This document shows, piece by piece, positions 24,358 through 60,348 of a DNA stretch of 64,000 bases. The notes under the pieces are model-generated. The model was not told the origin of the DNA. It ran no database searches and saw only the letters and a list, made by a program, of their open reading frames with translations. Positions within the stretch are counted from its first letter, which is position 1. Each line of letters begins with the position of its first letter. Position numbers and translations under genes: made by a program. Source of the stretch: Candidatus Sulfomarinibacteraceae bacterium (GTDB lineage Bacteria; Acidobacteriota; Thermoanaerobaculia; Thermoanaerobaculales; Sulfomarinibacteraceae); the NCBI GenBank assembly GCA_963796455.1, contig CAWCLO010000010.1, positions 96,001-160,000 on the forward strand. Reading direction: 5' to 3'.

Positions 24358-24650
24358 AGATCGGAATTCGGAGTTCGGAATCGGAATTCGGAGTTGTCAT
24401 CGCAGGGCTCTTTCTGATTTCATATCGCAATACTGCCCTTGACTTCGGGTGCCCAGGTCAGTGCTGTCCAAAACAAATCGTGATCTGAAGTTGCCCGGTT
24501 GACAACACGAAATTTACGTGTTGGATTTCGGCATTTCCGCTTCGTGGTTGCCCCGTGCCCGGGTCCGAATTGCAGCGGCACCGACAGTGTTCAGCGTCAG
24601 CGACAGAGGACAGCGGCGGCGGCAGCGATCAGGAGTCCAGTCGGCGAAAT

Positions 24651-24786
24651 GGCCACCTCCGGGTCGTTCAAAGGAAGGGGTAGCCGGTGGGCGGCCGATG
24701 TCAAGGACAGGCAGGGTGCAGGGCATCCTTGACATCGGCCACCACACCGGCTTGTGGGTAGGGGCATGAACGACCCGGAGGTGACC
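24651..24786 (+). promoter_or_regulatory. Long structured leader hairpin sequestering the GGAGGTG Shine-Dalgarno
   Basis: Nested stems 24651-24670/24767-24786 (19 of 20 bp), 24682-24689/24745-24752 and 24693-24707/24726-24740 (15 bp perfect). Confidence 0.75.
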
Positions 24787-25140
24787 ATGTCCAACGCCGC
24801 CACGAACACCAACCTCGTTGCCCACTCGAAAGCACTCGAAGCCGCAGGAATCGCGATCAATCTCGTGATGAGGGTTCCAGCTCCTCTGAAGTCGATAGCC
24901 GATCAGGTGATCCGTTCGGCAAGTTCAGTCCCTGCGAACCTGGCAGAAGGCCACGGCCGTTTCGGTAGAGACCGGTTGAACCACTGGAGAATCGCGTACG
25001 CCTCGGCGAAGGAGGTCGACAGCCACTTGGAGCTCCTCGCCCACGCCGGGGCGATCAGCCAGAATGGAGCCGGTGAAGCAATGAAGGCCTTCGATCAGGT
25101 CCGTGCGATGACATGGCGTTTACTCAACCCAAAGTCTTGA
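24787..25140 (+). CDS. Four-helix bundle protein (23S rRNA intervening-sequence protein / bAvd-like family)
   Basis: DQVIRSASSVPANLAEGHGR...IAYASAKE motif. Strong SD GGAGGTG upstream of ATG 24787. Confidence 0.88.
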   Translation: MSNAATNTNLVAHSKALEAAGIAINLVMRVPAPLKSIADQVIRSASSVPANLAEGHGRFGRDRLNHWRIAYASAKEVDSHLELLAHAGAISQNGAGEAMKAFDQVRAMTWRLLNPKS

Positions 25141-25303
25141 TTTCAGGGCTCCATGCCAGTCAAACGTGACGCTGACTCCTGTTCGCTGACGCTGAACACT
25201 GGTCGCCGTTCCCTGTCGCTGACGCTGATCGCGGCCACCGTCCCTGATCGCTGTCTGAGACTCTATCTTGGACAAGAGTGTGCTCAGGTCCAGGATTCGA
25301 TTC

Positions 25304-25392
25304 TGTCGCCCCTCCGGGGCTCGATATTGATTTTTTCATCTAATTCCTGGGGCTGACGCCCCAGGCTACTCTCTGTCGCCGCTTCGCGGCTC
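25304..25392. repeat. Second REP-like palindrome cluster (GCCCCTCCGGGGC / CCTGGGGCTGACGCCCCAGG / GCCGCTTCGCGGC)
   Basis: Three adjacent short GC-rich hairpins in the intergenic space. Confidence 0.55.
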
Positions 25393-25469
25393 ACAATCTC
25401 CATTTTTCTCTGTGCCTCTGTCTCTGAGGTTGTTTCGAAACGCCCCAGATCGAAATCGCCGGTCGAGGT

Positions 25470-26381
25470 CTATTTCTGGATCGGGAGGCGCTCGGTCGAG
25501 TAAGTCGGCTTCTCCTCGCGCGGTTTGGCGGCGCGATTGGCGGCGCGGGCCTGCATTTTGCGGACCCATTCCTCCGGCGGTTCCTGCGGCGCGAAAGAAA
25601 CAAAGAGCGCGACCCAGCAAAAGGCCGCCGCGAGCCACCCAACGACGATACCGAGCACCGCCCACGGCATATCGAGCGCCACTGGCAGGACCACAAGAAC
25701 CAGGGCCGGTAGCATCCACACCAAAAGGGGCAGCATCGAGCTCAGGGGATTTCGCAGGACGGCCCAGAGCCCCCTCGCCCAGGCGACCAGAGCCGATCTC
25801 CGACCCGATTCGCCCACCAACCACGCCGCGCGGAGGGTGGAGAGCCAACCCAGAAGCACGATCATGCCCATGCCGAACAGGCCGAGCGCCAACACGATGA
25901 GCTCCGATCGCGCGGAGTCGACGATCATCCGCAATTCCCTTACAGCGAGCCAGATCGAGAAAGCTCCAGCAATCGTCACCACATTGCCGACCGTCCACAA
26001 CCGGGCGTATCGCCACCACCAGACGACGCCGTGGCCGAGGATTTCGGAGAGCCGTACCTTGGCGGCGCCCGCGCCCAGCCACCAGCGCACGATTCCTCCG
26101 TGCCACAGGACCGACCACGCGAAGAGCAACAGGACCGCAAGCACAAGCGCGACGGCGATTGGTACTGCCACCGGGCGCAGCAGTTCGAAGAAAATCAACA
26201 GGGAGTCTCCGTCAGGGAGATCGTGGGAAGGGAAGTTGGACCGGGCCGGATTGGCGGCCGCGTGAATGATGACCTGCGCCGGTATCAGGGCCGCGATCGA
26301 CACCATCCAGACAGCGAAGACCACCTTGCGCAACCTGAACGCTAGACGCAGTCCGTCGACCGGGGAAGGGCGACCCGCCAT
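25470..26381 (-). CDS. Hypothetical multi-pass membrane protein
   Basis: Several hydrophobic helices. Directly downstream of the M1 peptidase. Confidence 0.7.
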   Translation of the reverse strand: MAGRPSPVDGLRLAFRLRKVVFAVWMVSIAALIPAQVIIHAAANPARSNFPSHDLPDGDSLLIFFELLRPVAVPIAVALVLAVLLLFAWSVLWHGGIVRWWLGAGAAKVRLSEILGHGVVWWWRYARLWTVGNVVTIAGAFSIWLAVRELRMIVDSARSELIVLALGLFGMGMIVLLGWLSTLRAAWLVGESGRRSALVAWARGLWAVLRNPLSSMLPLLVWMLPALVLVVLPVALDMPWAVLGIVVGWLAAAFCWVALFVSFAPQEPPEEWVRKMQARAANRAAKPREEKPTYSTERLPIQK

Positions 26382-26382
26382 C

Positions 26383-28419
26383 TCAGCTAAACCTTAAGAA
26401 GAGCCTGCCCAGGAGGCCGCCGATCTCGCGCATCCACCACAGTGGATGGTCGACGGCCCCAGGTTCAGCCCGCCAGTAATTGTCTGCTCGCTTGGTTTCA
26501 AGGGCCCACACACCGTCCGGATCCACCACCACCTGCAGCAATCGTTGCGGGCTTTCGAGCTGAAGACTCGCCCAACGATCCGCACCATCCCAAACCCTTC
26601 GTTCGGTCGATCCGTCGGCCCAGGTCAGTTCGAAAACCACCGGGCCGACAAAGTCGCCGCGGCGAACAAATCGCAGATCGATGGACCAATCGTCACCGTC
26701 GTCCCCGTCTCCGGTGGCCACATCCCAGGCCGATCCGTTCCAGTAGAATCCATCCACCAAAGGGGATCGGAAATGATCGACCGACATCACACCCCAATCC
26801 GGGGTGGAATCGGCAAAGACCGCCTGATCGAAGAACCAGCTCAGATCCTGACCGGCCGCCTCGCTCAGGACCGCTTGCAGATCCCGTCCCGTCGGGTGCT
26901 GAAAACGAAAGGTCGAAAAATAGTCTCGCATTCCGCGGGCCATCGCCTGCGGCCCGATCAGACCCTCGATCGTGCGCATCGCCACCGCCATCTTGCCGTA
27001 AGAAGCCAGGAAGTAGACCCACCGGTTTCGGTAGGACCACGACGAGCGGGCAATCGTGACGGGGATGTCGGGGATGGCCGGCGCGACCCGCATGGACGCC
27101 CAGACCGAATGAGGTCTGATCTCAGGCGCCAACCCATCATTCATGATGTCGCGGATGCACGAATTCTCGGCATAGGTCGTGACGCCCTCGTCCAACCAGC
27201 CCCGTTCGAATTCATTGGACGCCACCATCCCCTGGAAATACTGGTGGCCGAATTCGTGAGCGGTGACGCTTTCGATGTCAGGCGACCAGGAATAGGGTGG
27301 AAAGGCATCCAAACGATCGGCCCCGGTGGTGATAAAGGTCGGGTACTCCATGCCGCCCGCCTCTTCGGCGCCGTCGGGCGGCGACACGATGGTCAGCTGC
27401 GGATAGGGAAACGGTCCATAGTGGAGACCGAACCACGCCACCGAGAGCCTGGCCGCCCGAACCATTCTCGGCACCAATGCGCTCTGCGAACGCGGCACCA
27501 GGAAGCGCAGCCGCAGGGGCCGCAATTCGAGATCCGCGGAACTGACACCGAGCAACCTGCGAGCCCGTTCCAACCACACCATCGGCACATCCCGGCTCGG
27601 TTCGAAGTCCGTGACGAAGACCTCCATCAGATCGGGTGGTGCGGTGGACCACGCAAAGTCATGGACTCGATCAGCGCGGTAGCTGACAGTCCGGCTGCCA
27701 TCGCCCGCGACTCTGTTGCCGACCTCGATTCCGGTCGCACCGACGACCCAGTCCTCCGGGATGGTCATCTCCACCCTGTAGCTTCCGAAGTCGGCAAAAA
27801 ACTCCGACGAGGCGTGAAACTGGTGACAGTTCCAACCGGCTTCACCCTCGAAGACGGCGAGCTTGGGAAACCATTGCCCAACCAGATGGAACTCTCCGAC
27901 GAACCCGGTGCGGGCGATGATCCACGGCAGTTGCGCCTCGAACTCGATTTCCAGTTCAACCACCCCACCCGCACGAACGGCTTCGGGAAGCTGCACCCTC
28001 GCGACGGAGAAATCATCCGGATTGTCGTCATCCGGCCGCACGAACTCGAGGCCGGCGAGCAGATCAGTACCATCGGCGAGCCGGAGCGTGTCGATACGGG
28101 TCCAACCCCAACCATCTCCTCCCTGGCTGCGACCTCTCAAGGACCGCCAACCGAGTTCGCGCATGAAAGTGGTCCGCGAGCCCGCAAAAGCATTGAGATA
28201 GAGGTGGAAATAGAGTTCATCCGTCGCGACTCCGGAGGTATTGGTCCAGCGGATCCGCTCCACCCCGAGGATGCGGTGATTGACTTCATCGAGCACGACC
28301 TCGATGTCGTAGTTGGCTACTTCGAGTTCCACCGCCCGCATCGGGGCCGAAGTCGCAAGGATCGTGAGCAAGGCGACGATCGATGCAACGCGAAGCCGGT
28401 TGATCCGTAGAACCATCAT
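26383..28419 (-). CDS. M1 family zinc aminopeptidase, exported
   Basis: GGMEYP, HEFGH-x18-E (WLDEG) and a signal peptide. Start trimmed relative to the ORF track. Confidence 0.9.
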   Translation of the reverse strand: MMVLRINRLRVASIVALLTILATSAPMRAVELEVANYDIEVVLDEVNHRILGVERIRWTNTSGVATDELYFHLYLNAFAGSRTTFMRELGWRSLRGRSQGGDGWGWTRIDTLRLADGTDLLAGLEFVRPDDDNPDDFSVARVQLPEAVRAGGVVELEIEFEAQLPWIIARTGFVGEFHLVGQWFPKLAVFEGEAGWNCHQFHASSEFFADFGSYRVEMTIPEDWVVGATGIEVGNRVAGDGSRTVSYRADRVHDFAWSTAPPDLMEVFVTDFEPSRDVPMVWLERARRLLGVSSADLELRPLRLRFLVPRSQSALVPRMVRAARLSVAWFGLHYGPFPYPQLTIVSPPDGAEEAGGMEYPTFITTGADRLDAFPPYSWSPDIESVTAHEFGHQYFQGMVASNEFERGWLDEGVTTYAENSCIRDIMNDGLAPEIRPHSVWASMRVAPAIPDIPVTIARSSWSYRNRWVYFLASYGKMAVAMRTIEGLIGPQAMARGMRDYFSTFRFQHPTGRDLQAVLSEAAGQDLSWFFDQAVFADSTPDWGVMSVDHFRSPLVDGFYWNGSAWDVATGDGDDGDDWSIDLRFVRRGDFVGPVVFELTWADGSTERRVWDGADRWASLQLESPQRLLQVVVDPDGVWALETKRADNYWRAEPGAVDHPLWWMREIGGLLGRLFLRFS

Positions 28420-28489
28420 GAAAGTGTACCGGAATGGCGAAAGCTGGCATTTCTGGAGCAGAGCGTTTACATTGAGATCCGGACGGATC

Positions 28490-28921
28490 ATGCGACGACT
28501 TCTCATCCTCCTGTTGGTGTTGTCGGCCTCTATGGCGGCCGTCGCTGCAGATATCGACTTCCGGATCGGTATCGAGGATCTCTCCCTCGCCCCTCGGCCC
28601 GATGCACGCACCGAGGCGCGGCTGGCGCAGTGGAATGACCCCATGGGGCGGTTGATGTACCAATTCAATGCGCAGCAGTCGTGGCTGATGCGCGGCGGGA
28701 TGCCCGGCACCGATCGCGCAACGGGAGCGGTGGTCCGAGTCAAGGCCCAGAGTGGGGTCCCCATCCACCTCGTGGCGGCAAACGTCCAGGCCGGGATCGA
28801 CATCTCCAGCGATGAGATCGAGGTCATCGACTGGCCCTGGAAAGAGGAAGAGAGCCCGGCCGTGATGTCCTTGGAGAAGCAACTCTCGGTCCTCCTCGGT
28901 CAGCGGCTCAAGGCCGACTGA
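28490..28921 (+). CDS. Hypothetical exported protein
   Basis: MRR plus hydrophobic signal peptide, coding-like codon usage. Confidence 0.6.
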   Translation: MRRLLILLLVLSASMAAVAADIDFRIGIEDLSLAPRPDARTEARLAQWNDPMGRLMYQFNAQQSWLMRGGMPGTDRATGAVVRVKAQSGVPIHLVAANVQAGIDISSDEIEVIDWPWKEEESPAVMSLEKQLSVLLGQRLKAD

Positions 28922-29151
28922 GCCCCCCGCCTAGCAACTGAGGAGCCGCAGATCACGCAGGTGAACACAGATTCAGGACACGGAAACTCTGTGTTTTTTT
29001 GATCTCAGACGAGTTTGCACGAATGGGTCGTCCCGAACAATGAGTCCTGTATCAGAGCAGTCGGACGGGCAAGCCACGGCGCGGCCTGAATGGCGAAGCC
29101 AACGCGTGAAAATTCGAAATCCGAAACCCGAAATTGCCCCATGGAATCGTT

Positions 29152-29424
29152 CTAGAGGCCTTCCTTGAGGTTTTTCGAGACTTTGAAGCGGACGCTCTTC
29201 GATGCGGCGATGGTGATGGTCTCACCGGTGGCTGGATTGCGGCCCGTACGGGCCGGTCGTTCCGAAACCTGAAAGGTCCCAAAGTTCGGCACCGTGACCT
29301 TGTCATTCGCTGCCAGCGCTTCTTCTATGATCTCGAAGAGAAGGTCGTAGGTCATCGCGACCTGTGTCTTCGGGTATCCGGTGAGTTCGGCCACTCGGTC
29401 CACGAGATCAGCCTTGCCTGCCAT
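29152..29424 (-). CDS. hup: HU family DNA-binding protein
   Basis: NFGTF...RPARTGRNPATGE...F..SK.LK. Confidence 0.93.
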   Translation of the reverse strand: MAGKADLVDRVAELTGYPKTQVAMTYDLLFEIIEEALAANDKVTVPNFGTFQVSERPARTGRNPATGETITIAASKSVRFKVSKNLKEGL

Positions 29425-29666
29425 GTTGCCTCCCAGGAGCTCGCTCGCCCGGACTATACACGAGGTTCCTGCCCGGATTCGCGAACGGCCTTCAATCGAC
29501 CCTATCGCCGACGACGAAGGGGGTCAAGACTCTCACGAGGCCAGGAATAGGAATCCACCGGACACCGTTGTCCCGGGTACCGGCACAAGCCGTGGATCAC
29601 AAACCGCTTCGGTCCCGTTGCGCAACTGATTCCACAGCCGCCACCGCTGCAAATGAAGGAGACGAT

Positions 29667-30122
29667 ATGCTGAACATCGGAGACCCCTTTGTCGAATTCG
29701 AGCTACCGGCTCACGACGGATCCACCGTCAACAGTGCCGATCTTGCCGACCGGCCTTTTCTATTGTTCTTTTATCCCAAGGCCGACACCCCCGGTTGAAC
29801 GATCCAAGCAAAACAGCTGCGTGACAGCTGGGATGATCTCGAGAAACTGGGAGTCGCAGTCTTCGGCGTATCCTACGACACACCTGAAAGAAACCGGGCA
29901 TTCGCTGCAAAAAACAACCTGCCCTTCCCGCTGCTGTCGGATCAGAACCACGATCTGGCAAAGGCGGTCGGCGCGGCTCGCACGTTGATTCCTCTACCAA
30001 AACGCATCTCCTACCTCGTGGGCGCCGACGGCAAGGTCCTCAAGAGCTATCCGAAGGTCGATCCGAAGAAACACGCCTCAGAGGTCCTGGCTGACTTTCT
30101 GGCGACAATAGCTGCCCAGTAG
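29667..30122 (+). CDS. bcp: BCP/PrxQ peroxiredoxin, selenocysteine-containing (UGA at codon 44)
   Basis: FYPKADTPG-[TGA 29796-29798]-T places the TGA at the peroxidatic Cys position. The frame continues in Prx sequence (GVSYD, FPLLSD, RISYLV) to TAG 30122. A hairpin follows the UGA. Confidence 0.9.
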
Positions 30123-30216
30123 TCGCCCGGAGGATCGGGAACGGGAGCTGGGGAGAAAGGGAGAAAGGGAATCTTCCACCGAAGGATTGGCGAGCTCCCT
30201 TTCTCCCTTTCAAACG

Positions 30217-30242
30217 AAAAAACGGGGCCCGAAGGCCCCGTT
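30217..30242 (-). terminator. Intrinsic terminator after mscS
   Basis: AACGGGGCC-CGAA-GGCCCCGTT hairpin with a T run on the minus strand. Confidence 0.7.
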
Positions 30243-30265
30243 GATTCTGCGCTGTTGCGGGGGTG

Positions 30266-31084
30266 CTAGCTCGCCACTTCGTGGAGATGCACGTCCCGCT
30301 GCGGATAAGGGATCGAGCAACCGGCCGCCTCGAGACCTTCTTTGAGCTGACGGTTGAGATCGAATTTGAGGTTCCAGTAATCCTGGGCCATGCACCACGG
30401 CCGGACAACGATATCGACCGAGGAATCACCGAGATTCGAGACCGCGATCACGACCTCGGGATCGGCCAGCACCCGGTCATCGGCCGCCACGATTCCCTGG
30501 ATCGTGTCGATCGCGGTGCCGACGTTGTCGTCATAGGAGATGCCCATGACCATATCGAGACGCCGGTTCTCGTAGCCGTTGTAGTTGCTGATCGTCGCCC
30601 CGTAAACCTGGGAATTCGGTACCGTGATCTTGATGTTGTCTGGCGATCTGAGCGTGGTGCTGAAGATTCCGATCTCCATGACCACCCCCTTGGTACCGCC
30701 CGCCTCGACATAGTCGCCGAGATCAAAGGGGCGAAAGACCAGAAGCATCACTCCTGAGGCGAAATTGGAGAGAGTGCCCTGCAGTGCCAGACCGACCGCG
30801 AGACCGGCCGCACCGAAGATAGCGACCACCGAGGTGGTGGCAACTCCGAGGCGGTTGAGGGCGGCGATCAATACCACGGCCAGAACCCCGTAATAGACGA
30901 GCTTGGCGACAAAGGGCACCAGAGTGGGATCGATTTCGCCACGCTCGAGACCCTTTCGGGTCAGGCGGCGCGCCCAACCGGCGACCATCCGGCCGACGAC
31001 GAGGATGATGATCGCTGCGACCACCGGCTTGTAATTGTTGGACACAAAGGACCAGGTCGAATCGAGTAGCTGTTGAATCTCCAT
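30266..31084 (-). CDS. mscS: Small-conductance mechanosensitive channel
   Basis: GAAGLAVGLALQGTLSNFASG, RPFDLGD and IPYPQRDVH. Confidence 0.93.
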   Translation of the reverse strand: MEIQQLLDSTWSFVSNNYKPVVAAIIILVVGRMVAGWARRLTRKGLERGEIDPTLVPFVAKLVYYGVLAVVLIAALNRLGVATTSVVAIFGAAGLAVGLALQGTLSNFASGVMLLVFRPFDLGDYVEAGGTKGVVMEIGIFSTTLRSPDNIKITVPNSQVYGATISNYNGYENRRLDMVMGISYDDNVGTAIDTIQGIVAADDRVLADPEVVIAVSNLGDSSVDIVVRPWCMAQDYWNLKFDLNRQLKEGLEAAGCSIPYPQRDVHLHEVAS

Positions 31085-31106
31085 AATCTCTTCTTTTCAG
31101 GCCCGA

Positions 31107-31562
31107 TCAGCCCGCCGCGAGCTCCGATGTACAGTTCGGGCACCGAGTGGCCTTGATGGCAATCTCGGTGCAACAGAAGTCGCAGTCCTTGGTCGTGGGC
31201 TCGGCCGGCGCTTCCTCTTCCTTCTTCTTCAAATTGTTGATCGCCTTGATGACCAGAAAGACCGCAAAGGCGACGATCAGAAAGCTGATCACGGTGTTGA
31301 CGAAGAGACCCCAGTTGATGGTGACCGCGCCGGCAGCCTGGGCATCGGCGAGGGCCGCATAGGGACCTGCGGGATCGCCCATCTTGACCACCGCGAAGAG
31401 ATTCGAAAAATCGACCCCGCCCATCAGCATCCCGATCGGCGGCATCAGCATATCGCTGACAAAGCTTTTGACGATGGTGCCGAATGCGGCACCGATGACG
31501 ATGCCGACCGCCATGTCGACCACATTTCCGCGCATTGCAAATTCTTTGAATTCCTTGAGCAT
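31107..31562 (-). CDS. mscL: Large-conductance mechanosensitive channel with C-terminal Cys knuckle
   Basis: [27 protein letters not shown], with tail CDFC...RCPNC. Confidence 0.95.
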
Positions 31563-31645
31563 TCCATCCCCCTTCGATCGACTCTTCAAGAGTCGACCAT
31601 CTTGTTCCCCGTTAATTAAACAGCGTGCTTCGTCGCACGCGGACC

Positions 31646-32389
31646 TCAGAAGTTGAAGACCACCGATGCGGTCGAGGTCGTGTCCGTGCTCTTGGCATCA
31701 CCGATCGGCTCGTTGCGATAACGCACGTCGAAACCAAAACGGAGGGCCAACCACGAGTTGACCGCCGCTTCGATGGCGGTCATCGATGACAGCCGCCAAT
31801 CCGATGTTGTATCGAAATTCGGGAGGAAGACGAGGCGTTCGGTGAGCTTCGCACTCTCGCTGATCTTCCATTCCCAACCGAGGCCAAAGAGACCACCGAT
31901 GAAGTTCATGTCTTCCGCCGGCGGGATACGATCTTCCCAGGTATAGGCAAGACCCATGTCAAAGGTCAGAAGGTGGCGATCACTCTGCACCGCGAGGTAG
32001 GTTGCACCGGCCGAGACCACGGTCTGAGAATCAAAGCCCGCAAAGGTGTCCTTTGCCCATGCCAGACCGCCAAAGGCTTCCCAGCGGTCATTGAGCTTGC
32101 GCACCGCTCGGCCGCTGAGCAGGTAGTTCTCGGCTGTGAGGTTGCCCGAGTCTTCGGCCCGGTTGCCTCGCGCGAGGAAGGACAGACCCCACGGATCCGG
32201 CACCCGATCGAGACCAAAATCAAGTCCAAAAGAACTTGTGTCGGTATTACCGGAGGTCGCCACCCACGAAAGCCCCAAGGAGCCCGCCCAAATCGGCACT
32301 ACTTCTTCTTCGGTTTCTTGGGCCAACACCGGCACCGTGCCCATCATCAGAATCAAGACCACACTCAGCGCACCGATCGAACGTCGCAT
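31646..32389 (-). CDS. DUF481 (YdiY-like) outer membrane beta-barrel protein
   Basis: Signal peptide, TSGNTDT, alternating beta pattern and C-terminal Phe. Confidence 0.8.
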
Positions 32390-32601
32390 CGCTTAACTTC
32401 CTCCGTCTATTTTTTTTCGTACATCTGATTGACCACACACTACCTTAAAAGTCACTTTTGAGCGAAAAAATTGCGTGCAGATCCTTTGATCGGCAACCGG
32501 CAGTCAAGCATCATAATTCCCGAGCGGTATACTTTTGACGTGCCCATCAATTTCACCCCACGCCTGATCCACCAGAATCTTGCGCCGGCCGGCGGTTTCT
32601 G

Positions 32602-35060
32602 ATGAAAACCGGCCGCGTCTTTGTCGCTACCGAGACCGCGGGGCCGCGCTCGCGTTTGGTGGCGATGATCGGAGCGGTCGCAGCCGGTCTCGGCGTCGCC
32701 GTCCTGCAAAACGTTTTGCAGTGGCAAGGGGACCGGATCGAGTTCTTGATTCTGGCGGGATTCAATGCCTTCCTGGCCTCTCTCGCAACATGGTTTTTTC
32801 ATATCAGGTGGCAGGTGCTGGGTGACGTCTTCGACCGCCAGGTCAAAAACGTCTTTCTCCCGATAGCCTGCCATTTTTTGCTGCTGCTGGCGCTCGAGGC
32901 TCTGGTGCCTTCGCAGACTGTGCGCGATACCTTCGGTCTCATCTCATGGGTCATCTCGCAAACTCTGGCTGCCGCGATCCTGTTGTTCACGTTCCGCGGT
33001 GGCAGGGACTACGGATCCGGCAAGAGGGTTCTGCGTACCACCGGCGCGGTCGGTATCGCGGTGGCCGTTTGGGGCATCTTCCACCTGCTCCATGACGCCG
33101 GTCTGGTTCGCGGCATCGCCCCCATAGAAGCCGGTCTCGCCACCGTCTTTCTCCTGGCGGCCGTCGTGCCGATGCTGGGGGGCGGCGACCAACGCCAACC
33201 GCGAGAGGTGTGGCTGGGGGCGGCCTTCCTTCTCACAGCGATCGCCCATATGAACCTGTCGTGGTCGAGTACGGTTTACGACAGTCCCTTCATGTGGGCC
33301 CATGTCCTGCTCGGGCTCAGCCTCGCAACACCAACCATTGGCGCGGTTTTCGAAAACGTCACGCTCCTGGAGTCCCAGACCGCGCTCTCCGATCGGCTCA
33401 AACGCCTCCGCAGCAGGATGGAGATCCTGCTCGATACGCTGCCGGTGTTGGTCCTTTCGGTGGATCGCGACCGCAATATCCGCTACGCCAACCGGGCTGC
33501 GAGCCAGCTCTTCTCCATCCCCCACGGGGCCGGGGACACGGATCACGGATCGGAATGGCTGGACCGGATCCATGCCAATCACCGGCCGCAGATCTACTCC
33601 GCCATCCCGTCCGTGCTCGAGGGCGGGAGGGGAATCTGGGAAGAGATGATTCGGGTCGAAGACGCCGAGGGCACGGTGCACTGGCTCAACACCCAGATGC
33701 AGCCGGTCGCCGATCCGGTGGTCAACGAAACACTGATCCAGGTCGTCGCCGTCGACGTGACGGATCTTCATCTCGCCAGACGGGCGGCCGAGGGCCGCCA
33801 GTCGCGACTGGCGTTTCTTTCCAACCTCGCCCAGAGCCTTTCGGGAGAGCTCGAAGAACAAAAAATCCTCGATCTTTTCCTCGAACTCGGGCAAGAAATC
33901 CTGCCGCTGCAGTCGCTTCTTTTGTACCGTCCGGTGGCGACCAGCGACGGGCTCAGGTTGGAGGCCGGCACCGGCCCTGGCATCGAAGCATTCGAGGGCG
34001 ATCGCTTCCGCCACCTCACCGATGTTGACCACCCATGTGTGAAGACCTTTCACGAGGGCGTGCCACAGGGAGCACCTACGGCGGGCAACGTGCCCGACGA
34101 GCTTGCCGAGTGGCTCGCCGCGGAGCACCAGATCCAATACTTGAACTATCTGCCACTGACCGCCGCAGGCCGGACCGCGGGGGTTCTTTTGGCGACCTCC
34201 GGAACGCCCCTCAATCTGGCCGTCGAAGATATCGATCTGCTTTCACAGATCGGATTCCTGGTGGGTGGCGCGATTTCCCTCTCGCAGTTGGTGCGCGAAC
34301 TCGATGAACAACGGGCGGTGGCCTTCGAGGCTTCGCGGTTGAAATCGGAGTTTCTCGCCAATACTTCGCACGAACTCCGGACACCATTGACGGCGATCCT
34401 CGGTTTTCTCCGTCTCATCATCGACGGCGCGGTGAAAGACCCGGAAAAACAGCGGGAATTCCTGACCATAGCCCACGAATCGGCCGAGAGTCTGCTCAAT
34501 ATCATCAACGACGTCCTCGACCTCGCCAAGATCGAGGCCGGCCGCCTCGAGGTCCATTTTGCGCCGGTCCCGGTGCGGACCGTGCTCAAGGACATTCAGA
34601 CCCTTTTCCGGCATCAGATGAAGAGCAAGGGTCTGCGATTCGAGACCGAAGGATCGGATAGCAAGCTGGTACTGTGGGCGGATTCCGACCGGACATCGCA
34701 GATCCTCACCAATCTGATATCGAACGCGATGAAGTTCACCAATCGGGGGGACTCAATCGTCGTCAGGTGCCGGGCCCGCGACACCAAGATCCTCTTCGAA
34801 GTCGTGGACTCGGGTATCGGGATCGCACCCGACGAATTGGAAAAGATCTTCTCGTCCTTTTACCAGGTCGATGGCTCCACCACCCGGCAACGGGGGGGAC
34901 CGGTCTCGGGCTTGCCATCTCACGCCGTCTGGCCGAGCTGATGGGCGGCACGCTCGAGCTCGACAGCGAGGGCGTCAATCGCGGTGCGACGGCGCGGCTC
35001 GTCCTCGGAGAGTTCACCACCGACCACGAGGCGACAAATCCCGAGCTTCGCGCACCCTAA
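32602..35060 (+). CDS. Membrane sensor histidine kinase (TM-PAS-GAF-HisKA-HATPase); frameshift in the G run near 34895
   Basis: SHELRTPL, NAMKFT and DSGIGI. The G2 box GGTGLGLAISRRL lies in the shifted frame ending at 35060. Confidence 0.88.
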
Positions 35061-35208
35061 AAAGCGGTGGAGCCGATGTCGGCGCTGATTGAACCACAGA
35101 GGCACCCTGACGTTTCGTCACAACCACCAAGACGCCAAAGGCACCAAGTCATCACAATGACGCCGGCGGAGCCGGGAATTTCTTTTCCTGCGGGTCCTTC
35201 TCCTGAGA

Positions 35209-35468
35209 TCGCCCACAGAACACACAGAAACCATCGCAGCCACGAAGACGGACAGAACGCAGAGGCGCAACGACATCGATGTGAAACTGGGAGCGTCGAG
35301 CAATCCTTTCGCGAATAGGTAGAGGAAGAAGGAGGCGAGGCCTGCGCTTGAGCGCAGGCCGGTATCTCGCCAGATTGAGGCAGGTGATCCCCCGGCATCT
35401 TTGCGATCTTCGCGGCCTTTGCGGTTTTTGCGATGGCTTCTATGTTTTTCTGTGTGTTCTGTGGGCGA
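35209..35468. repeat. MITE-like unit bounded by a perfect 22-bp inverted repeat
   Basis: TCGCCCACAGAACACACAGAAA at 35209-35230 and its reverse complement at 35447-35468. Confidence 0.65.
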
Positions 35469-35694
35469 CAACGGGTCTCTTCAGGGATTCTGCGGTTCGA
35501 CAGGGATGAACGATGCGACCTGAACGAGAATCCTTTGCCCCAGAAAATTCGATTGCTGCTCAAACACGCAATAACTCAATACTCTTCCAATCATTTAAAT
35601 TTAGATTACGATGACAGGCACCAAATCGTCGCTGCATGAAGCGAGCGGAATCGGGGTCCAGATGCGGTGCAATCTTCGCAACAATCCCTCTCCC

Positions 35695-35722
35695 TTGACA
35701 ATCCAAAGTGTTTCTGTATATT
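35695..35722 (+). promoter_or_regulatory. Putative sigma70 promoter of the efflux operon
   Basis: TTGACA-N16-TATATT upstream of a GGAGG ATG. Confidence 0.55.
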
Positions 35723-35756
35723 CCTAAATGGTTATGAAGTGATCTCTTGCGGAGGC

Positions 35757-37103: not shown

Positions 37104-38173
37104 AAAACCTGAAAACCCTGATTCCAGTCATCGCTCTGGTGTTTTCGCTCGGATGCGGACACGAGCAACCGCAACAGGCCGAAACCGTCCTCGCACCCAT
37201 ATCGGTGGACGTAGCGGAGGTCGAGCTGATCCAGGAAGAAAAACCGATCGAGGTTCGGGGAGTCGTGCAAGCTGCCCGCCAGGCCGTGGTATCGAGCCGT
37301 GTCATGGGCCCGGTGGTCGCCCTCAGGGTACGAGCCGGTGCAGTGGTCGGCAAAAATCACGTGCTTCTCGAGATCCAACCCGAAGCCGCCGACGGCCAGT
37401 TGGCCCAGGCCAGCGGCGCACTCGCGCAGGCACAGGCGGCGCTCTCGCTCGCCGAACGGAACTTTTCGAGATACAAAGCTCTGGCCAAGGAGAACGCGGC
37501 CTCGGATCTCGAACTCGATATGGCGCGGATGCAGTTCGAACAGGCGCAGGGCGCGGTCGAGCAGGCCGAGGGCGCGGTCCAGGCGGCATCCTCGGTGGCC
37601 GGGGAGTCCGCCGTCCGATCGCCATTTGCCGCGCGGGTCGTCGAAACTCTGGTCGAGGTCGGAGACCTCGCGGCCCCCGGCAGGCCATTGGTCAAGCTCG
37701 AGTCGATCGGAGGCCAGCAGATCTGGTTGACGGTGCGCGAAGGAGACCTTCGGCGGGTGGCTCTCGGCGACACAATCGGCGTTCGATTCGATGCTCGTCC
37801 TGATCTGGAGGTGGTTGACGGCTCGATCGTGGAGATCGTCCCATCCGCCGATTCGGCGACCCACACATTCACCATCAAGGTCGACCTCGGTGGGCTCGAG
37901 ATTCCCTCTGGTTTTTCCGGCCGAGCCGAGATATCCGGTGATTCGACCGGCCGTCTGGTTGTCGGTCGGGAAGCGGTCCACCAACGAGGCGGCCTGGAAC
38001 TGGTTGTCGTCCGCTCCGAAGATGGAACCGCCCGCACTCGCGCGGTCACCACCGGCGCTTCGACCACCGACAACCGAATCGAGATTCTTTCCGGTCTCGA
38101 CCAGGGTGAATCGGTGGTCATGAACATCGCCGGCCCGGTGGCCGACGGCACCCCGCTGGAGCTGCAGCGATGA
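37100..38173 (+). CDS. RND efflux periplasmic adaptor (lipoprotein)
   Basis: Lipobox SLGC, lipoyl-hairpin motifs (SSRVMG, RSPFAARV) and ILSGL..GE.VV. Confidence 0.9.
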   Translation: MKNLKTLIPVIALVFSLGCGHEQPQQAETVLAPISVDVAEVELIQEEKPIEVRGVVQAARQAVVSSRVMGPVVALRVRAGAVVGKNHVLLEIQPEAADGQLAQASGALAQAQAALSLAERNFSRYKALAKENAASDLELDMARMQFEQAQGAVEQAEGAVQAASSVAGESAVRSPFAARVVETLVEVGDLAAPGRPLVKLESIGGQQIWLTVREGDLRRVALGDTIGVRFDARPDLEVVDGSIVEIVPSADSATHTFTIKVDLGGLEIPSGFSGRAEISGDSTGRLVVGREAVHQRGGLELVVVRSEDGTARTRAVTTGASTTDNRIEILSGLDQGESVVMNIAGPVADGTPLELQR

Positions 38174-54979: not shown

Positions 54980-56275
54980 ATGACCGGAATCAACAAAATG
55001 ACCCTCGTCGGCCTCGCGGTGATTTTTCTCTGCGTCGGCGCCGCGAGCGCCCAGGACGAGCTCTACCTCGAAATCACCCAGCCCGGGCTGCGACGGGTCG
55101 CGGTGGCGACGCCGCCGCTGATGGTGCTTCCTGGAACCCCAACCGAGTCGGCACGAGAGTTTCAGGAAACCCTGGACAACGACCTTGCTGCAGCGGCTCC
55201 GGTCGCAATCGTCGATCCTCGTCTTTATTCGCTGATCGAGGACGACCCCCGTCCCGAGGTTCTGAATCAGCGCTGGCGGGCCATCGGCGCCCAGTTTCTG
55301 CTCAGCGGGACCGTGGTTCGCGCCGGAGGCCAACTGGTCGTCGAAGCGCGCCTGGTGGATCTGGTCTCGGGCGAGTTTGCATTTGCAAAAAGATACCGCT
55401 CGGGCATCGACGCTTCGGCTGTTGTTGCGCACACTCTCGCCAACGACATCGTCCAGGTCTTTACCGGGCGTCCAGGGCCTTTCCTGTCGCGCCTCGGTTT
55501 CATCTCCGACCGTGTGGGCGAGTCCGAACTCTGGGTCATGGACTGGGACGGCGCGAACCCGAAACAGCTCACCAAACACAACACCATCGCGCTCGCACCG
55601 GCGTGGTCCCCCGACGGACGCCAGATCGTTTTCACCTCCTTCCTGCGCGGCACTCCCGCCCTCTTCGTTCTGACCCCCCACGAGGGCTATCTTCGGATGA
55701 TCTGGGACAAGGGCGGCGTCAATTCGTCGGCCAGTTTTTCGCCAGATGGTTCAAGGATCGCCTTCGCGTCGTCGGTCGACGGAAACACCGACATCTACGT
55801 GATGCCGCTTGAGGGTGGCACCGCGCGGAGGCTGACGAACGCCAGGGGCATCGACACCCAACCGGCGTGGGCTCCAAACGGCCGCCAGATCGCATTCACC
55901 TCGACCCGTTCGGGCACACCGCAGATCTATCTGATGGACGCCGACGGTTCGAATGTCCGGCGGCTCAGTTTTGAAGGTGGTTTTCACGACGAGGCGACCT
56001 GGGCCCCCGACGGGACCCGTGTTGCCTGCACAACCAAGGTCGGCAGCAAGTTCCAGATCGCCACCATCGATACGATCACCGGCGACAAGACCGTCATCCC
56101 CGGCCCTGGTAACAACGAATCACCGTGCTTTTCTCCCGACGGTTCGATGCTTGCTTTCGCTTCAGACCGTACCGGTTCTCCACAGATTTTCATCACCGAC
56201 GCCGATGGGGTTCCGCACCAATTGACCAGCGAAGGCAAGAACCACTCACCGACGTGGACGGCGGCGTCGAAGTAG
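54980..56275 (+). CDS. tolB: TolB beta-propeller protein
   Basis: TolB N-domain plus PD40 repeats (PAWSPDG, FSPDG). Confidence 0.9.
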   Translation: MTGINKMTLVGLAVIFLCVGAASAQDELYLEITQPGLRRVAVATPPLMVLPGTPTESAREFQETLDNDLAAAAPVAIVDPRLYSLIEDDPRPEVLNQRWRAIGAQFLLSGTVVRAGGQLVVEARLVDLVSGEFAFAKRYRSGIDASAVVAHTLANDIVQVFTGRPGPFLSRLGFISDRVGESELWVMDWDGANPKQLTKHNTIALAPAWSPDGRQIVFTSFLRGTPALFVLTPHEGYLRMIWDKGGVNSSASFSPDGSRIAFASSVDGNTDIYVMPLEGGTARRLTNARGIDTQPAWAPNGRQIAFTSTRSGTPQIYLMDADGSNVRRLSFEGGFHDEATWAPDGTRVACTTKVGSKFQIATIDTITGDKTVIPGPGNNESPCFSPDGSMLAFASDRTGSPQIFITDADGVPHQLTSEGKNHSPTWTAASK

Positions 56276-56314
56276 AGAGCCTCCATACTCGATGCTCGAT
56301 GCTCGATGCTGGAT

Positions 56315-57160
56315 CACTCTTGTCCAAGACAGAGTCTCGATAGCGTACAGGGACAGCGAGCAGGAGTCAGCGGCAGCGTTCAGTCACCAGCGTCAGCAAT
56401 CAGCGACCGGGGCGGCGACAGCGCCAGTGAAAAGCTCTCACTTCGTCGGGTTCAACAGTCGCCAGGTCATCGCACGGACTTGATCGAAGGCCTTCAGCGC
56501 ATCACGTGCGGCTGTCTGATTGATAGCCCCGCGGTGTGGGCGAGGAGCTTCAAGTAGCTGTCGACCTCTTTCGCCGAGGCGTATGCGATTCTCCAGTGGT
56601 TCCACCGGTCTCTACCGAGTCGGCCGTGACCTTCTGCCAGGTTCGCAGGGACTGAACTTGCCGACCGGATCACCTGATCGGCTATGGATTTCAGCGGAGC
56701 TGGAACCCTCATCACGAGCTTGATCGCAATTCCTGCTGCCTCGAGGGTTTTCGAGTGGGCAACGAGGTTGGTGTTCGTGGCGGCGTTGGACCTGGTCACC
56801 TCCGGGTCGTTCATGCCCATACCCACAAGCCGGTGAGGCGGCCGATGTCAAGGATGCCCTGCACCCTGCCTGTCCTTGACATCGGCTGCCCACCGGCTAC
56901 CCGTTTTGTTGAACGACCCGGAGGTGGCCATTTCGCCGACTGGACTGCTGATCGCTGCCGCTGATCACTGATCGCTGATCACTGATCGCTGTTCCCTGTT
57001 CGCTGTCCCTGTTCGCTGTTGCCTGTCGCTGCCGCTGCAATTCGGGCACGGACACGGACGCGGACTCGGGCACGGGACACCGCAAACTCGATATACCAAA
57101 AACCAACCTGTAAGCCTCGTTGTGTCAGGTGGGTGACTTCAAATGACGATTTGTTTTGGA
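56315..57160 (-). mobile_element. Foldback element copy B with a degraded four-helix-bundle gene
   Basis: Inverted homolog of 24467-25280, with leader hairpin at 56794-56929. Confidence 0.7.
56438..56793 (-). pseudogene. Four-helix bundle protein pseudogene
   Basis: Close paralog of 24787-25140. The start ATG is changed to AGG and a 2-nt insertion lies near 56535 (356 nt versus 354 nt). Confidence 0.8.
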
Positions 57161-57313
57161 TCGCAGGGCTGCTGGATGCGCAAATTTCCGGAATCTTCCG
57201 TATGCTATGTACATGCCGGGTGGATGGGTGGATCCAGCATCTAGGATCCAGCATCGGGCAAAATCATAGACCGATCTTCGGCAGCTCACCTCGATTCAGC
57301 AGGGAGACTCACC

Positions 57314-57754
57314 ATGAGTGACCGCAAATACAGCCATCGTGGCTATCAGGATGACGATCGGGATCGCGAGCCGCAAAAGAAACGCGAACGCCCGAAGACA
57401 GACGGCGTCCGCCGCTATGACAGCGCACCGCGTGGGCGGGGCCTGGGGGCGCCGACCAAGGTTTCCTTCAAGTGTGCACGCTGCGGTCACGAATTGGCGG
57501 ACCCGAAGATCACCACCGACACGATGTGCTCATCCTGCGGCTCCGCCCTCCACTCGTGCTCCAATTGCACCTTCTTCAATACGGGATCGCGTTTCGAGTG
57601 CCAAAAGCCGATCGCCAAACGGGTCGAGAGCAAGACCAAGGTCAATCCGTGCAAATTCTTCAAACCCAAAGCGGTTCGCGATCTCAAGGTCGAGACACCC
57701 GGAGTCTCGTCGCACGATCCGCGCGCGGCCTTTGACGCCTTGTTCAAGAAGTAG
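57314..57754 (+). CDS. Hypothetical Cys-rich (multi-CxxC) zinc-binding protein
   Basis: CARC, CSSC and CSNC plus further Cys. SD GGGAG upstream. Confidence 0.75.
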   Translation: MSDRKYSHRGYQDDDRDREPQKKRERPKTDGVRRYDSAPRGRGLGAPTKVSFKCARCGHELADPKITTDTMCSSCGSALHSCSNCTFFNTGSRFECQKPIAKRVESKTKVNPCKFFKPKAVRDLKVETPGVSSHDPRAAFDALFKK

Positions 57755-57875
57755 CTTGTGAGGCCATGATCGGTCGCTCCGCTCCCTGGCTATGAGGCGA
57801 CGAGGAGTTTTCGCTGCACCAGGTTGTCTCAGAGCCTCATCGCTCCATAGCCTCACTCGCCCTATAACCCCAAAC

Positions 57876-59177
57876 CTACTCCTTCGATGACCCTGCTGTG
57901 ATGGTCTCCAACCCATGCGCGTTCGGTCCGGTTTCTTCCTTCCGCAACATGACGGCGAAGAAGAGGGCGAAGAAACCGAGAATACTGAACGCCCACATTC
58001 CCGGGATATGGCCGGCGGGGTTCTCCCCACTCGCCTGGTAGTGGTCATTCAAGAAACCGATGAGCAGCGGCATGCCCATGACGCCGAGTTGCTGGATCAG
58101 GGTCATGAGGGCATAGGCGGTTCCGAGCCGTTTCTCATCGACGATGTAGGCCACCGAGGGCCACATCACCGCGGGAATCAGCGAAAAGGCGATCCCCATC
58201 ATCGCCACGGGGACCGCAAGGGGCGTGATCTGGTAGGCCATCATCAAAAAGACCGGCATCATCAAGAATGAACCGAAGACCATGAAGAGCGAACGTTTAC
58301 CCACCTTGTCCACCAACAGCCCGAAGAGGGGGGTCGCGATCATGGCCGCCAGCGGCAGCACGCTGTTGTACTGACCCGCCACACCACGGGTCAGCTCCCA
58401 GGCCTCCATGAAGAACTTGATGGAGAATCCCCGGAAGGGGAAGATGGCCGAGTAGAACGTCACGCACAACGCCACCACGAACCAGTACGACTTGGTGAAA
58501 CGGAAGAGATCCGAGAGCACCAGCTTATCGGTCTCACCGGCATCACCGAGACCATGGCGGCGGCTTGCGCGCACCTCGAGGAGGCCGTAGACGATCGCAG
58601 AAACCACGACCAGGATTCCGATCGCTGCAGCGATGATCAGCGGGCTGCGCCAGCCCGTGAAGGCCGACGGGACCCAGGTCGGCATCAGGTCGGCCGAAAA
58701 CGAACCCAGACGGGCGATGGTCAGATTGATTCCAAAGGCGAATCCGAGCTCCCGCCCTTTGAACCACTTGGCCAGTGCGCAGGTGATCGCCACGATCAGG
58801 GGCTCGGAACCAAGGCCCAGGAGGAAGCGGGCGCCCACCATGACCCAGAAATCGGAGGTCACAGCCATCAGGATCCCGGCAAAGGTACAGATACCGCCAA
58901 AAACGATGGTTGACTTGACGGTGCCGTATTTGTCGATGATCACGCCGCCGAGCAACAGGACGATGACCGCCGCAAGACTGTAGACCGAGAACAGCATGCC
59001 GTAGTTCGCGTCGCTGAAACCGAGTTCCGACTTCAACAGATCGGCGATAGGTGCGATGGAATCGTAGACATAATAATTGGCGAACATGGCCAAACTGATC
59101 ACAATCAGTACGACCCACCGATACATGGGCGAAGGCTGGGAGGCCATGTCCTGGGAATTCACGTTGTTTTCGTTCAT
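57876..59177 (-). CDS. MFS transporter
   Basis: GGVIIDKYG, ARFLLGLG and GLLVDKVGKR motifs; about 12 TM helices. Confidence 0.9.
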   Translation of the reverse strand: MNENNVNSQDMASQPSPMYRWVVLIVISLAMFANYYVYDSIAPIADLLKSELGFSDANYGMLFSVYSLAAVIVLLLGGVIIDKYGTVKSTIVFGGICTFAGILMAVTSDFWVMVGARFLLGLGSEPLIVAITCALAKWFKGRELGFAFGINLTIARLGSFSADLMPTWVPSAFTGWRSPLIIAAAIGILVVVSAIVYGLLEVRASRRHGLGDAGETDKLVLSDLFRFTKSYWFVVALCVTFYSAIFPFRGFSIKFFMEAWELTRGVAGQYNSVLPLAAMIATPLFGLLVDKVGKRSLFMVFGSFLMMPVFLMMAYQITPLAVPVAMMGIAFSLIPAVMWPSVAYIVDEKRLGTAYALMTLIQQLGVMGMPLLIGFLNDHYQASGENPAGHIPGMWAFSILGFFALFFAVMLRKEETGPNAHGLETITAGSSKE

Positions 59178-59310
59178 CGAGCGCTCCTTTTGACTCAACG
59201 TTGACACAGCATAGTCGAGCCGCCGGAAGTTTAGATCGCTACTTGGTGTTATACTGGTTCGACCTACCCGTGGCGCCAAGGCGACCGCGGTCGCCGGAGG
59301 ATCCCCCAAT

Positions 59311-60162
59311 TTGCTGACCCGAAGACGTTTCTTGAAGAGTGCCTCTCTGACTGCAGCCAGTTCGCTCGGTTTCGCCGGCTACGGATTTTCGAATGCGCTC
59401 GACATGCCCGGTGTGCGCCGCCAACGCCTCGACCTGCCGAACCTTCCCCAGGATTGGGACGGTCTGCGAATCGTGCAGATCTCCGATGTCCACGCGGGCC
59501 CGTATATGGATTCCGAACGGATGTCACGACTGCGGGACATGGCTCACAACCTGAAGCCCGACCTCATCGTCTTCACCGGCGATCAGATGGATCGCCGGCC
59601 GTCGGACGCCGAGCTCTTCGTGCGCGGTTTCGAAGGCATCACGGCACCGATGGGTGTGTGGGGCATCCTCGGAAACCACGATCATTTCTTCGATCCGAAA
59701 AAGAGTGAATGGGCGCTCGAGGCGGCAGGAATCAAACCACTGATCAACGAAGGCGTTGTATTCGAGCGCAACGGCGCGGAGCTGGCTATTGTGGGCGTCG
59801 AAGATCTCCACGCGAGTGCGGGTCGCGAGCCCGACTTTTCGGTCCTCAATCGATACCCGACCGCTTTCCGGGTCTGCCTCTGTCATCAGCCGAACGGCTG
59901 GCATCGGGCCGCCGAAGCAGGCGCCCATCTGACCCTGGCCGGCCACACCCATGGCGGTCAGATCGCACTCACCGGCCGCAATATCAACGTGGCGCGTTTC
60001 AACACCCGCTACATCGCCGGACCCTACCGTCGTGAAGAGGCATTTCTCTACGTGTCGCGAGGAGTCGGTGTTGGTGCTGTCCCTGTCAGAGTCGGCGCGC
60101 CGCCGGAGATCGATGTGCTGACTCTCAGAAGCCCGGCGGCGAGCGCAACGGCCGTCGCGTAG
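59311..60162 (+). CDS. Tat-exported metallophosphoesterase
   Basis: TRRRFLK, DVH, GD, GNHD and GHTHGGQ. Confidence 0.9.
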   Translation: MLTRRRFLKSASLTAASSLGFAGYGFSNALDMPGVRRQRLDLPNLPQDWDGLRIVQISDVHAGPYMDSERMSRLRDMAHNLKPDLIVFTGDQMDRRPSDAELFVRGFEGITAPMGVWGILGNHDHFFDPKKSEWALEAAGIKPLINEGVVFERNGAELAIVGVEDLHASAGREPDFSVLNRYPTAFRVCLCHQPNGWHRAAEAGAHLTLAGHTHGGQIALTGRNINVARFNTRYIAGPYRREEAFLYVSRGVGVGAVPVRVGAPPEIDVLTLRSPAASATAVA

Positions 60163-60232
60163 ATCTTCCAAAAAGCACAACTCGTTGCCGGGCCCCATTA
60201 CCGCGAGCAGCCACCACATGCCGCCTGGACTA

Positions 60233-60348
60233 CTGACCGCCGCCGCTGAACACTGATCGCTGTTCTCTGTCGCTGCCGCTGTTCACTGACTCCTGTTCGC
60301 TGACGCTGCCCCTGAAAGCTGCCCGAGACCCTGTCTTGAACAAGAGTG
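60233..60348 (+). repeat. Foldback element copy D: solo right arm plus terminal motif
   Basis: CTGACTCCTGTTCGCTGACGCTG shared with copy A. Terminal motif at 60325-60348. Confidence 0.65.

Follow-up and report, generated by a model that had tools for sequence, protein, structure and literature searches.

The gene-bearing element and its copies in the window

The window (the whole 64,000-nucleotide stretch of DNA that was analysed) contains four related loci, A to D. Copy A, with all its parts on the + strand, is a complete element of 822 bp (positions 24459..25280), as judged from its ends and flanking duplications. Its first ~19 bp form the left terminal inverted repeat and, with a subterminal segment (24459..24550), correspond to the right end of an IS4 element. 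A hexamer run and a CAGCG-rich left arm follow (24551..24648, limits approximate), and then a leader inverted repeat of three stems (24649..24789), which spans a GGAGGTG word, the start codon(s) and two back-to-back TTGACA words. The four-helix-bundle gene (24787..25140) encodes 117 aa, or 124 aa from an in-frame ATG at 24766, an upstream start found in 64 of 65 copies. Downstream lie a CGCTG-rich right arm (25155..25256, limits approximate) and the right terminal inverted repeat (25257..25280), which corresponds to an IS4 element's left end. The PF05635 ORF is enclosed by complementary arms, and no sigma-70-type promoter or terminator was scored around A.

Copy B (56315..57168, − strand; 854 bp) has a broken gene, with the start codon lost and a 2-base insertion. 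Copy C (50982..51440, − strand) retains the right end and both arms but no left end, and its gene is replaced by a palindromic interior (~51256-51312) that is common to 76 gene-less loci. Copy D (60228..60348, + strand) consists of the right arm and right end only, and no target duplication was seen at its junction. A and B are each flanked by a 9-bp near-duplication: TGCCCAGGT (24450..24458) and TGCTCAGGT (25281..25289; 8/9) around A, and ATCCAGCAG and ATCCAGCAT, within a 7-base array, around B.

The original prediction had described these four loci, two end motifs, CAGCG/CGCTG arms and a PF05635/TIGR02436 gene, with A intact and B a pseudogene, and all of this was found. It missed the near-duplications. 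Its solo arm D is a right arm that also carries the right end, and its decay series of a mobile, transposase-less family is supported, except that C is a member of a gene-less subfamily rather than a one-off deletion.

A large family with IS4-type ends

The four loci understate the family, which comprises ~247 loci and occupies 109 kb of the 5.0-Mb genome (G000; assembly 90.5% complete). Genome-wide recurrence of the 24-bp end motif, a proposed check, is far above chance: there are 146 matches at ≤4 mismatches, compared with one match altogether, at 5 mismatches, for five shuffled motifs. Both predicted end motifs are real but together make up one pair of terminal inverted repeats. The left end had been placed 8 bp too far inward (it is at 24459 in A and at 57168 in B), and the extended left motif is an inverted repeat of the right motif at 16/19 positions in a well-preserved copy and at 13/19 in A.

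Target duplications accompany these ends. Among 73 left-right pairs, the 9 bp are duplicated exactly in 21 (shuffled mean 2.1, maximum 9; 1000 shuffles) and within one mismatch in 40 (shuffled mean 7.9, maximum 17; 1000 shuffles). Other lengths (3-8 and 10-14) gave ≤3 exact duplications among paired copies, and of 17 pairs lacking 7-base periodicity, 7 nonetheless agree at 8-9 of 9 bases. A length of 9 bp falls inside the 8-13 bp range for IS4 derivatives and mobile insertion cassettes. The latter are defined by IS4-family ends around a passenger gene, with no transposase of their own and with movement in trans.

The whole family is very probably such a transposase-less mobile insertion cassette with IS4-type ends. 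Its ~250 elements, which often carry a conserved gene known from rRNA intervening sequences, are likely moved by a transposase from elsewhere. The predicted absence of a transposase holds for every copy, and movement in trans with an IVS-type four-helix-bundle gene aboard is likewise supported.

Candidate transposase partners

Complete IS4-family elements share the family's ends. One, in a congener (L016 in G017), is 1411 bp long and has these ends around a DUF4372 + DDE_Tnp_1 protein with a Y-R-E-K motif (NF033592, 251 bits; cut-off 115). A second (L182) is 78% identical to it. The left end of our reference copy agrees with L016 at 53/92 ungapped positions, and at 35/73 beyond the repeat (0/10000 shuffles as high); its right end agrees with L182 at 25/30. 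Homology to complete IS4 elements thus covers ~92 bp on the left and 25-30 bp on the right. Among 25 related IS4 loci examined, seven combine CA-type ends with an exact 9-bp duplication; L016, L182 and six further related loci with such ends have no target duplication of their own. PMC2266710 (Table 1) gives CA ends and 8-10 bp repeats for the IS4Sa subgroup, and our IS4Sa-like assignment rests on this pattern of ends and repeats rather than on a tree with ISfinder members.

Such movement would in itself be ordinary DDE transposition. Over 92 bp, even the closest IS4 ends share only 54-58% identity with the element and, judged by this identity, the exact transposase partner is not among the IS4 elements found. 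No cognate transposase was detected in G000 (90.5% complete), G006, G021 or G008; nevertheless, G000 holds a pair of elements that are 99.3% identical. In G000, tblastn with the L016 protein gave no match, no pair of ends <6 kb apart encloses a transposase, and there was no IS256, reverse transcriptase, ISL3 or NF033592 match. The single DDE_Tnp_1 match of this genome was rejected as the autonomous copy because its ends differ. In viral contigs the end motif matched seven times, and the DNA retrieved contained neither the gene nor the transposase. No RNA sequencing run was listed as containing the element. Four DNA sequencing runs yielded pieces only, with no joint skipping the element, a result that carries no weight either way.

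Insertion into intergenic 7-base arrays

The elements insert between genes, at sites that fit AT[CG]C[AT]G[CG]AT-like 9-mers supplied by (ATCCAGC)n arrays, which also occur without an element. A flank lies inside a called gene in just 1 of 78 paired copies (with a crude gene caller). The consensus 9-mer, present 871 times in the genome, abuts 109 of 260 ends. Orientation in tandem gene contexts showed no significant bias (18 versus 10, p 0.18). As a check on mobility, orthologous sites were compared, and A, B and C are missing in 5/5 relatives; these are other species, 72-85% identical, and no clean single-copy target was seen.

IS4-family ends and 9-bp target duplications thus surround a hairpin leader and the four-helix-bundle gene. 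We propose that a cognate IS4 transposase supplied in trans likely cuts and pastes this cassette, which is found mostly in intergenic 7-base repeat arrays.

One core, two kinds of ends

In seven other congeners, the same gene and hairpin core sits between ISL3-type ends with 8-bp duplications, and elements with either type of end land in 7-base arrays between genes. In 24 of 45 relative loci the ends are of ISL3 type on both sides, and 17 of these 24 have 7-8 of 8 bp duplicated. No ISL3 partner was present among 20 end loci retrieved; a family search then found one, an intact ISL3 with the same ends adjoining a core (L155, a single case). In an unrooted gene tree, the genes with IS4 ends group on a single branch (99/99) among those with ISL3 ends; the tree has 57 rows, 11 of them with neither end type, and ends were labelled from one side where needed. 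The gene core is probably older than its IS4 ends. Array-seeking IS elements would have landed on both sides of it, once ISL3 and once IS4, with a deletion then removing the transposase.

Within the core, a 140-bp inverted repeat covers the translation start (z −4.8). Wobble counts do not favour a simple mRNA hairpin as the leader's form. The gene matched PF05635 alone in Pfam, and its protein weakly matches 2GSC and 2RLD, both five-chain structures. The protein may form a pentamer like Avd and bind the fold-back nucleic acid of the element itself, a guess against which the balance leans somewhat. The four unrelated PF05635 genes of the genome also sit between inverted arrays.

The gene is under selection. 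Pairwise dN/dS is 0.15, with 0.14-0.19 for shared changes and 0.62 for single-copy changes, and linkage among gene copies decays with distance. No stop codon occurs in the 65 full-length genes, where ~4 were expected, which suggests selection on resting copies too and is not what a mere passenger would explain. Selection on the copies that give rise to new ones, together with recombination between copies, would keep the gene, with drift in the resting copies. Derivatives without the gene have duplications and include near-identical pairs (one is 98.1% identical), so the protein is not needed in cis.

What maintains the gene

The core could itself be a selfish unit, with IS ends as exchangeable vehicles and a protein that promotes the spread or retention of its own fold-back cassette by binding arms or arrays, by steering or assisting an available transposase, or by promoting recombination between copies. 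Its recurrence with IS4 ends, with ISL3 ends and with neither argues for this, as do the strong constraint seen in shared changes, the occurrence of seven identical copies of the gene in G008, 4102 relatives at E≤1e-10 and the similar setting of the unrelated PF05635 genes. Furthermore, ~20 right-end copies are truncated near position 100-125, at the start of the core. However, gene-less elements outnumber gene-bearing ones among the 78 paired copies (45 versus 33), and with duplications; one copy with a frameshift shows 98.4% identity to two intact copies; and in G008, G024 and G020 these IS4 ends enclose other palindromes without a gene. Moreover, the truncated copies lack duplications at their junctions, with near-matches in just 5 of the 107 well-preserved unpaired ends (79 right, 28 left). 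We therefore regard a selfish core as unlikely. The fuller version seems a little more doubtful still: a vehicle-swapping selfish gene cassette living among 7-base arrays and captured repeatedly by unrelated array-seeking transposons (IS4, ISL3), with an Avd-like protein that favours its own spread, regulation from the antisense strand, and a role as the free-living parent of protein-coding rRNA intervening sequences.

Alternatively, the host may keep the copies because the cell makes use of the protein or of the long hairpins (in RNA processing, termination between convergent genes or defence), with transposition merely supplying them. That 59 of the 65 full-length genes are intact with no nonsense change, and that single-copy dN/dS lies below 1 (p 0.025), would suit such a role, as would the location of 27/65 copies between convergent genes, compared with 278/1644 long spacers. 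Yet the position of the copies is explained by the arrays, which themselves come after stop codons; sites are not common to relatives; and 6 of 24 congeners (several of them incomplete) gave no match. Sixty redundant copies should also each feel weak selection. A host function is accordingly improbable as the reason for their retention.

The 7-base arrays might instead be footprints of repeated insertion and excision, since rejoining a 9-bp target whose first two and last two bases are the same would yield a 7-base period, and 73 of 160 array loci abut an end. This origin is largely refuted and very unlikely: array counts do not track the element (242 matches in G015 and 180 in G022 without ends, but 2 in G021 with 56 ends), and G006 keeps short arrays at the empty B and C sites.

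Least credible are two other routes of movement. The original prediction had an HUH/Y1 transposase recognise the terminal hairpin and move the element as single-stranded DNA; the genome does have six Y1 genes, the right end can fold and leader mismatches favour one strand, but no Y1 gene adjoins the ends, nearly the same right-end sequence terminates a DDE element (L182), and the ends match complete IS4-family elements. Inverted ends and 9-bp duplications contradict this route, because, to our knowledge, Y1 enzymes make no such products, and HUH/Y1 elements (IS200/605, REP-RAYT) lack terminal inverted repeats and target duplications. RNA-mediated spread, whether DGR-like or by retrotransposition with an Avd-like helper, could draw on the excess of right over left ends (164 versus 103) and on the family's relationship to Avd discussed in PMC10053308, but it is just as improbable: the genome has no RVT_1 match, Pfam gave PF05635 alone, both DNA ends derive from an IS, and left-truncated copies have no duplications at their truncation points, for which retrotransposition was rejected.

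Comparison with known systems

A literature search that covered few subscription journals found no description of this gene in an IS-ended cassette. What PF05635 proteins do, and where rRNA intervening sequences with an ORF come from, are long-standing questions, and transposon ancestry has been proposed, not shown (PMC4990558, which cites ideas of IVSs as mobile elements or as remnants of transposition). This family shows the gene on the move: its ends are defined, two unrelated families supply candidate transposases, there is a rule for targets, and ~60 natural variants are under selection. Both questions thus become testable in Escherichia coli. A preference of transposases for intergenic 7-base arrays further illustrates how an array can serve as a safe landing site.

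The predicted free-standing IVS-like unit stands in so far as the same protein family lies inside complementary arms, as in the 23S rRNA IVSs with an S23p/PF05635 ORF of Coxiella and Leptospira. It is not a strict IVS: the window's 23S gene (44644-47654) has no PF05635 match, and the cassette is free-standing, intergenic and never in rRNA here, with IS ends and duplications. Purifying selection acts on its ORF; that of Coxiella, in contrast, is reported to be in decay (PMC4990558). Avd of diversity-generating retroelements belongs to a homologous fold family (PMC10053308); unlike those systems, this genome (90.5% complete) yielded no reverse transcriptase, a search that the original prediction had called for.

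Like MITEs and REP-targeting IS elements (PMC1525189), the family consists of high-copy non-autonomous derivatives inserted into intergenic repeats, but its full-length form carries a conserved gene, and its targets are tandem 7-base arrays (cf. PMC4692102), not REPs. It resembles IS4Sa-like IS4 elements (DUF4372 + DDE_Tnp_1, NF033592) in ends, subterminal homology and 9-bp duplication, and differs in that its copies have no transposase. In organisation it resembles MIC231 and passenger-bearing IS231/IS4 elements (PMC6542083, PMC2266710), with which it shares IS4-family ends around a passenger gene, the lack of a transposase and, probably, movement in trans. In contrast to the CAT ends and 10-12 bp repeats of IS231, however, this family has IS4Sa-like CA ends and 9-bp repeats; ~65 gene-bearing copies occupy one chromosome, their cargo also rides ISL3 ends, and their targets are 7-base arrays.

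Results

The four loci of the original prediction (copies A, 24459-25280, plus strand; B, 56315-57168, minus; C, 50982-51440, minus; D, 60228-60348, plus) proved to be as described, and their right-end motif recurs throughout the source genome (G000): it has 146 matches at ≤4 mismatches, whereas shuffled motifs have almost none. The predicted left motif is real, but flank alignment places the true left end 8 bp further out, and the extended end is an inverted repeat of the right end. The family comprises about 247 loci (109 kb, 2.2% of the assembly). An end scan found 267 ends (164 right and 103 left), which combine into 80 inward-facing pairs. Of these, 73 join a left to a right end, and the other seven, with two right ends, are of the kind that recombination between the inverted arms would produce. 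Paired copies fall into two length classes (about 400-550 bp and 780-900 bp), and 33 of 78 carry a near-full gene.

A 9-bp flank repeat was exact in 21 of the 73 left-right pairs, and in 40 it had at most one mismatch. None of the other lengths tested, from 3 to 14 bp, gave more than three exact matches. Because many copies sit in intergenic arrays of 7-base tandem repeats, left and right flanks were shuffled against each other as a control, giving means of 2.1 exact repeats and 7.9 at ≤1 mismatch. Among the 17 pairs without 7-base periodicity, seven matched at 8 or 9 of 9 bp.

Paired copies are intergenic, with a flank inside a called gene in only 1 of 78 (crude gene caller). A consensus 9-mer, occurring 871 times in the genome, adjoins 109 of 260 ends, and 73 of 160 array loci are in contact with an end. 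We reject the arrays as a product of the element, given that ends are lacking from genomes with hundreds of array matches and that one genome combines 56 ends with two array matches. Presence/absence variation between species, as predicted for a mobile unit, was found: A, B and C are missing at the pckA, tolB and purN sites in five of five relatives, with the gene next to these sites conserved in just some of the five. The relative G006 retains short arrays at the B and C sites without the element. A REP-like hairpin directly follows copy A (25290-25400; Rfam Acido-Lenti-1 match at 25346-25391); the same repeat occupies the orthologous site in G021, and a similar hairpin lies between IS4-type ends at locus L025.

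The end motif is present in 17 of 77 family genomes, and a reversed control motif in none. Of the 20 loci fetched, one (L016, in congener G017) spans 1411 bp and encodes an IS4-family transposase between the two ends; at L013 the same gene lies behind a single end. The left 92 bp of the cassette are colinear with the right end of L016 (53/92 identical); beyond the terminal repeat 35/73 positions are identical, a value reached in 0 of 10000 shuffles. The left end of a second complete IS4 element, L182 from a metagenome, matches the cassette at 25/30. Of 41 related IS4 loci returned, 25 were examined: seven have CA-type ends and an exact 9-bp duplication, seven (including L016) have CA-type ends without duplication, and the remainder are cut or have other ends. 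This is consistent with subgroup IS4Sa, to which PMC2266710 ascribes CA ends and 8-10 bp repeats. No cognate IS4 transposase was found in the 90.5%-complete G000 assembly, so the enzyme was supplied in the past, is encoded in unassembled DNA or comes from a visiting element. One pair of copies, 99.3% identical, shows fairly recent copying.

The core (hairpin leader and gene, about positions 115-760) is kept in 18 of 24 congeners, mostly without the element ends. Among 45 core loci of relatives, the IS4 ends occur once, in G006, where the flanking duplication is 9/9. Another 24 are bounded on each side by GG(C/T)TCATCCGG ends, and in 17 of these 7-8 of 8 bp are duplicated; this class sits in AACGTT-type arrays. 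An intact ISL3 with these ends (L155; PF01610, E 2.6e-69) directly adjoins a core bearing one ISL3-type end, an arrangement that plausibly records a capture event. In a 57-gene tree (9 of 59 own copies included, partial rows excluded), all 10 IS4-ended rows form one branch (support 99/99), and ISL3-type ends are scattered across several lineages and also occur in two other genera. This unrooted tree suggests that the IS4 ends were acquired later. A shortened IS4-ended core (arm, leader and gene start) in two genomes of another genus (L009 in G063, L010 in G067) suggests transfer between genera. IS4 ends in G008, G024 and G020 enclose other palindromes, with the gene absent.

The copy A gene matches PF05635 (55.9 bits, cut-off 33.8) and TIGR02436, and its protein weakly matches the five-chain structures 2GSC and 2RLD (E 0.005). 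All but four of the 70 PF05635 matches in G000 belong to this subfamily. Near-full copies are intact in 59 of 65, the other six being broken by frameshift; there are no stop codons, against about 4 expected. Median pairwise identity is 90% (dS 0.32, dN 0.049), and dN/dS is 0.14-0.19 for shared changes and 0.62 for single-copy changes. Linkage declines with distance and all four combinations occur at 60-75% of site pairs, a pattern that indicates recombination among copies but that repeated mutation may also help to produce. Near-identical partners exist for gene-less as well as frameshifted copies; the protein is thus dispensable in cis. The simplest reading is that selection on source copies and exchange between copies maintain the gene.

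The leader forms a three-stem inverted repeat spanning GGAGGTG and the start region, with at least two Watson-Crick types at 12 of 44 base pairs (115 leaders). The leaders of IS10 and IS50 block translation from read-through transcripts, and this fold would do likewise. On the coding strand, however, A-C mismatches exceed G-U (149 vs 18 cells; 34 vs 15 distinct events, p 0.009, the events not being independent; 5 vs 2 recurrent types), and the antisense fold is more stable in 86 of 113, which hints that the folded molecule is the other strand, or DNA. Near-identical G008 copies (L094, L095, L097, L098) differ solely in the 3' arm of the inner stem, possibly an artefact of sequencing through the hairpin.

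Several other repeats were recorded. A palindrome in copy C (51052-51080), CCTGAAGGTGGGCC...GGCCCACCTTCAG, also fills IS4-ended miniatures of G008 and G024 (L018, L021, L022). A tandem of four ISL3-ended miniatures with 6-base spacers lies at L128 (G068:C3). A separate DDE element has GAGCCTCTTGCAAAA ends (G000:C7, about 290900-292280; L148, L149), and miniatures with these ends follow tolB in G008 and G024, where they occupy GGGCTAT-type arrays; this may be a third family that seeks arrays. The four unrelated PF05635 genes (G000:C4 1278094, C1 983149, C9 2726, C10 733004) are each flanked by inverted 6-8-base arrays, the flanks shown being without IS ends. The rRNA operon (44458-49635, minus strand: 16S, tRNA-Ile, tRNA-Ala, 23S, 5S) has a 23S match of 3011 bases (model 2925), with no PF05635 gene inside. 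At C4 1143372-1147449 and C8 150867, and at C6 37094 and C7 279899-286913, G000 also holds repeated Y1-type genes and repeated 1.7-1.8 kb units that resemble IS91-type elements, and a further repeat family, of 600-1000 bp, in which CGCAGAT/ACACAGA arrays occur.

Discussion

The element fails the tests for a diversity-generating retroelement, and the predicted mobilisation by an HUH transposase likewise failed its tests. ORF-bearing rRNA intervening sequences (IVSs) have the gene and fold-back layout in common with the element, but not its location, theirs being by definition inside rRNA. The amplification of an IVS-type gene under constraint, between two unrelated sets of ends, gives direct access to two long-standing questions, the function of PF05635 proteins and the origin of ORF-bearing IVSs. 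Among the papers listed by our literature searches, none describes the cassette; the comparison drew on PMC2266710, PMC4990558, PMC6542083, PMC10053308, PMC9330008, PMC1525189 and PMC4692102. The family is real and a variant of mobile insertion cassettes, with ordinary movement. On sequence grounds it behaves as a mobile insertion cassette does, having every sequence feature tested for that class except a transposase in the same cell, with mobilisation predicted in trans.
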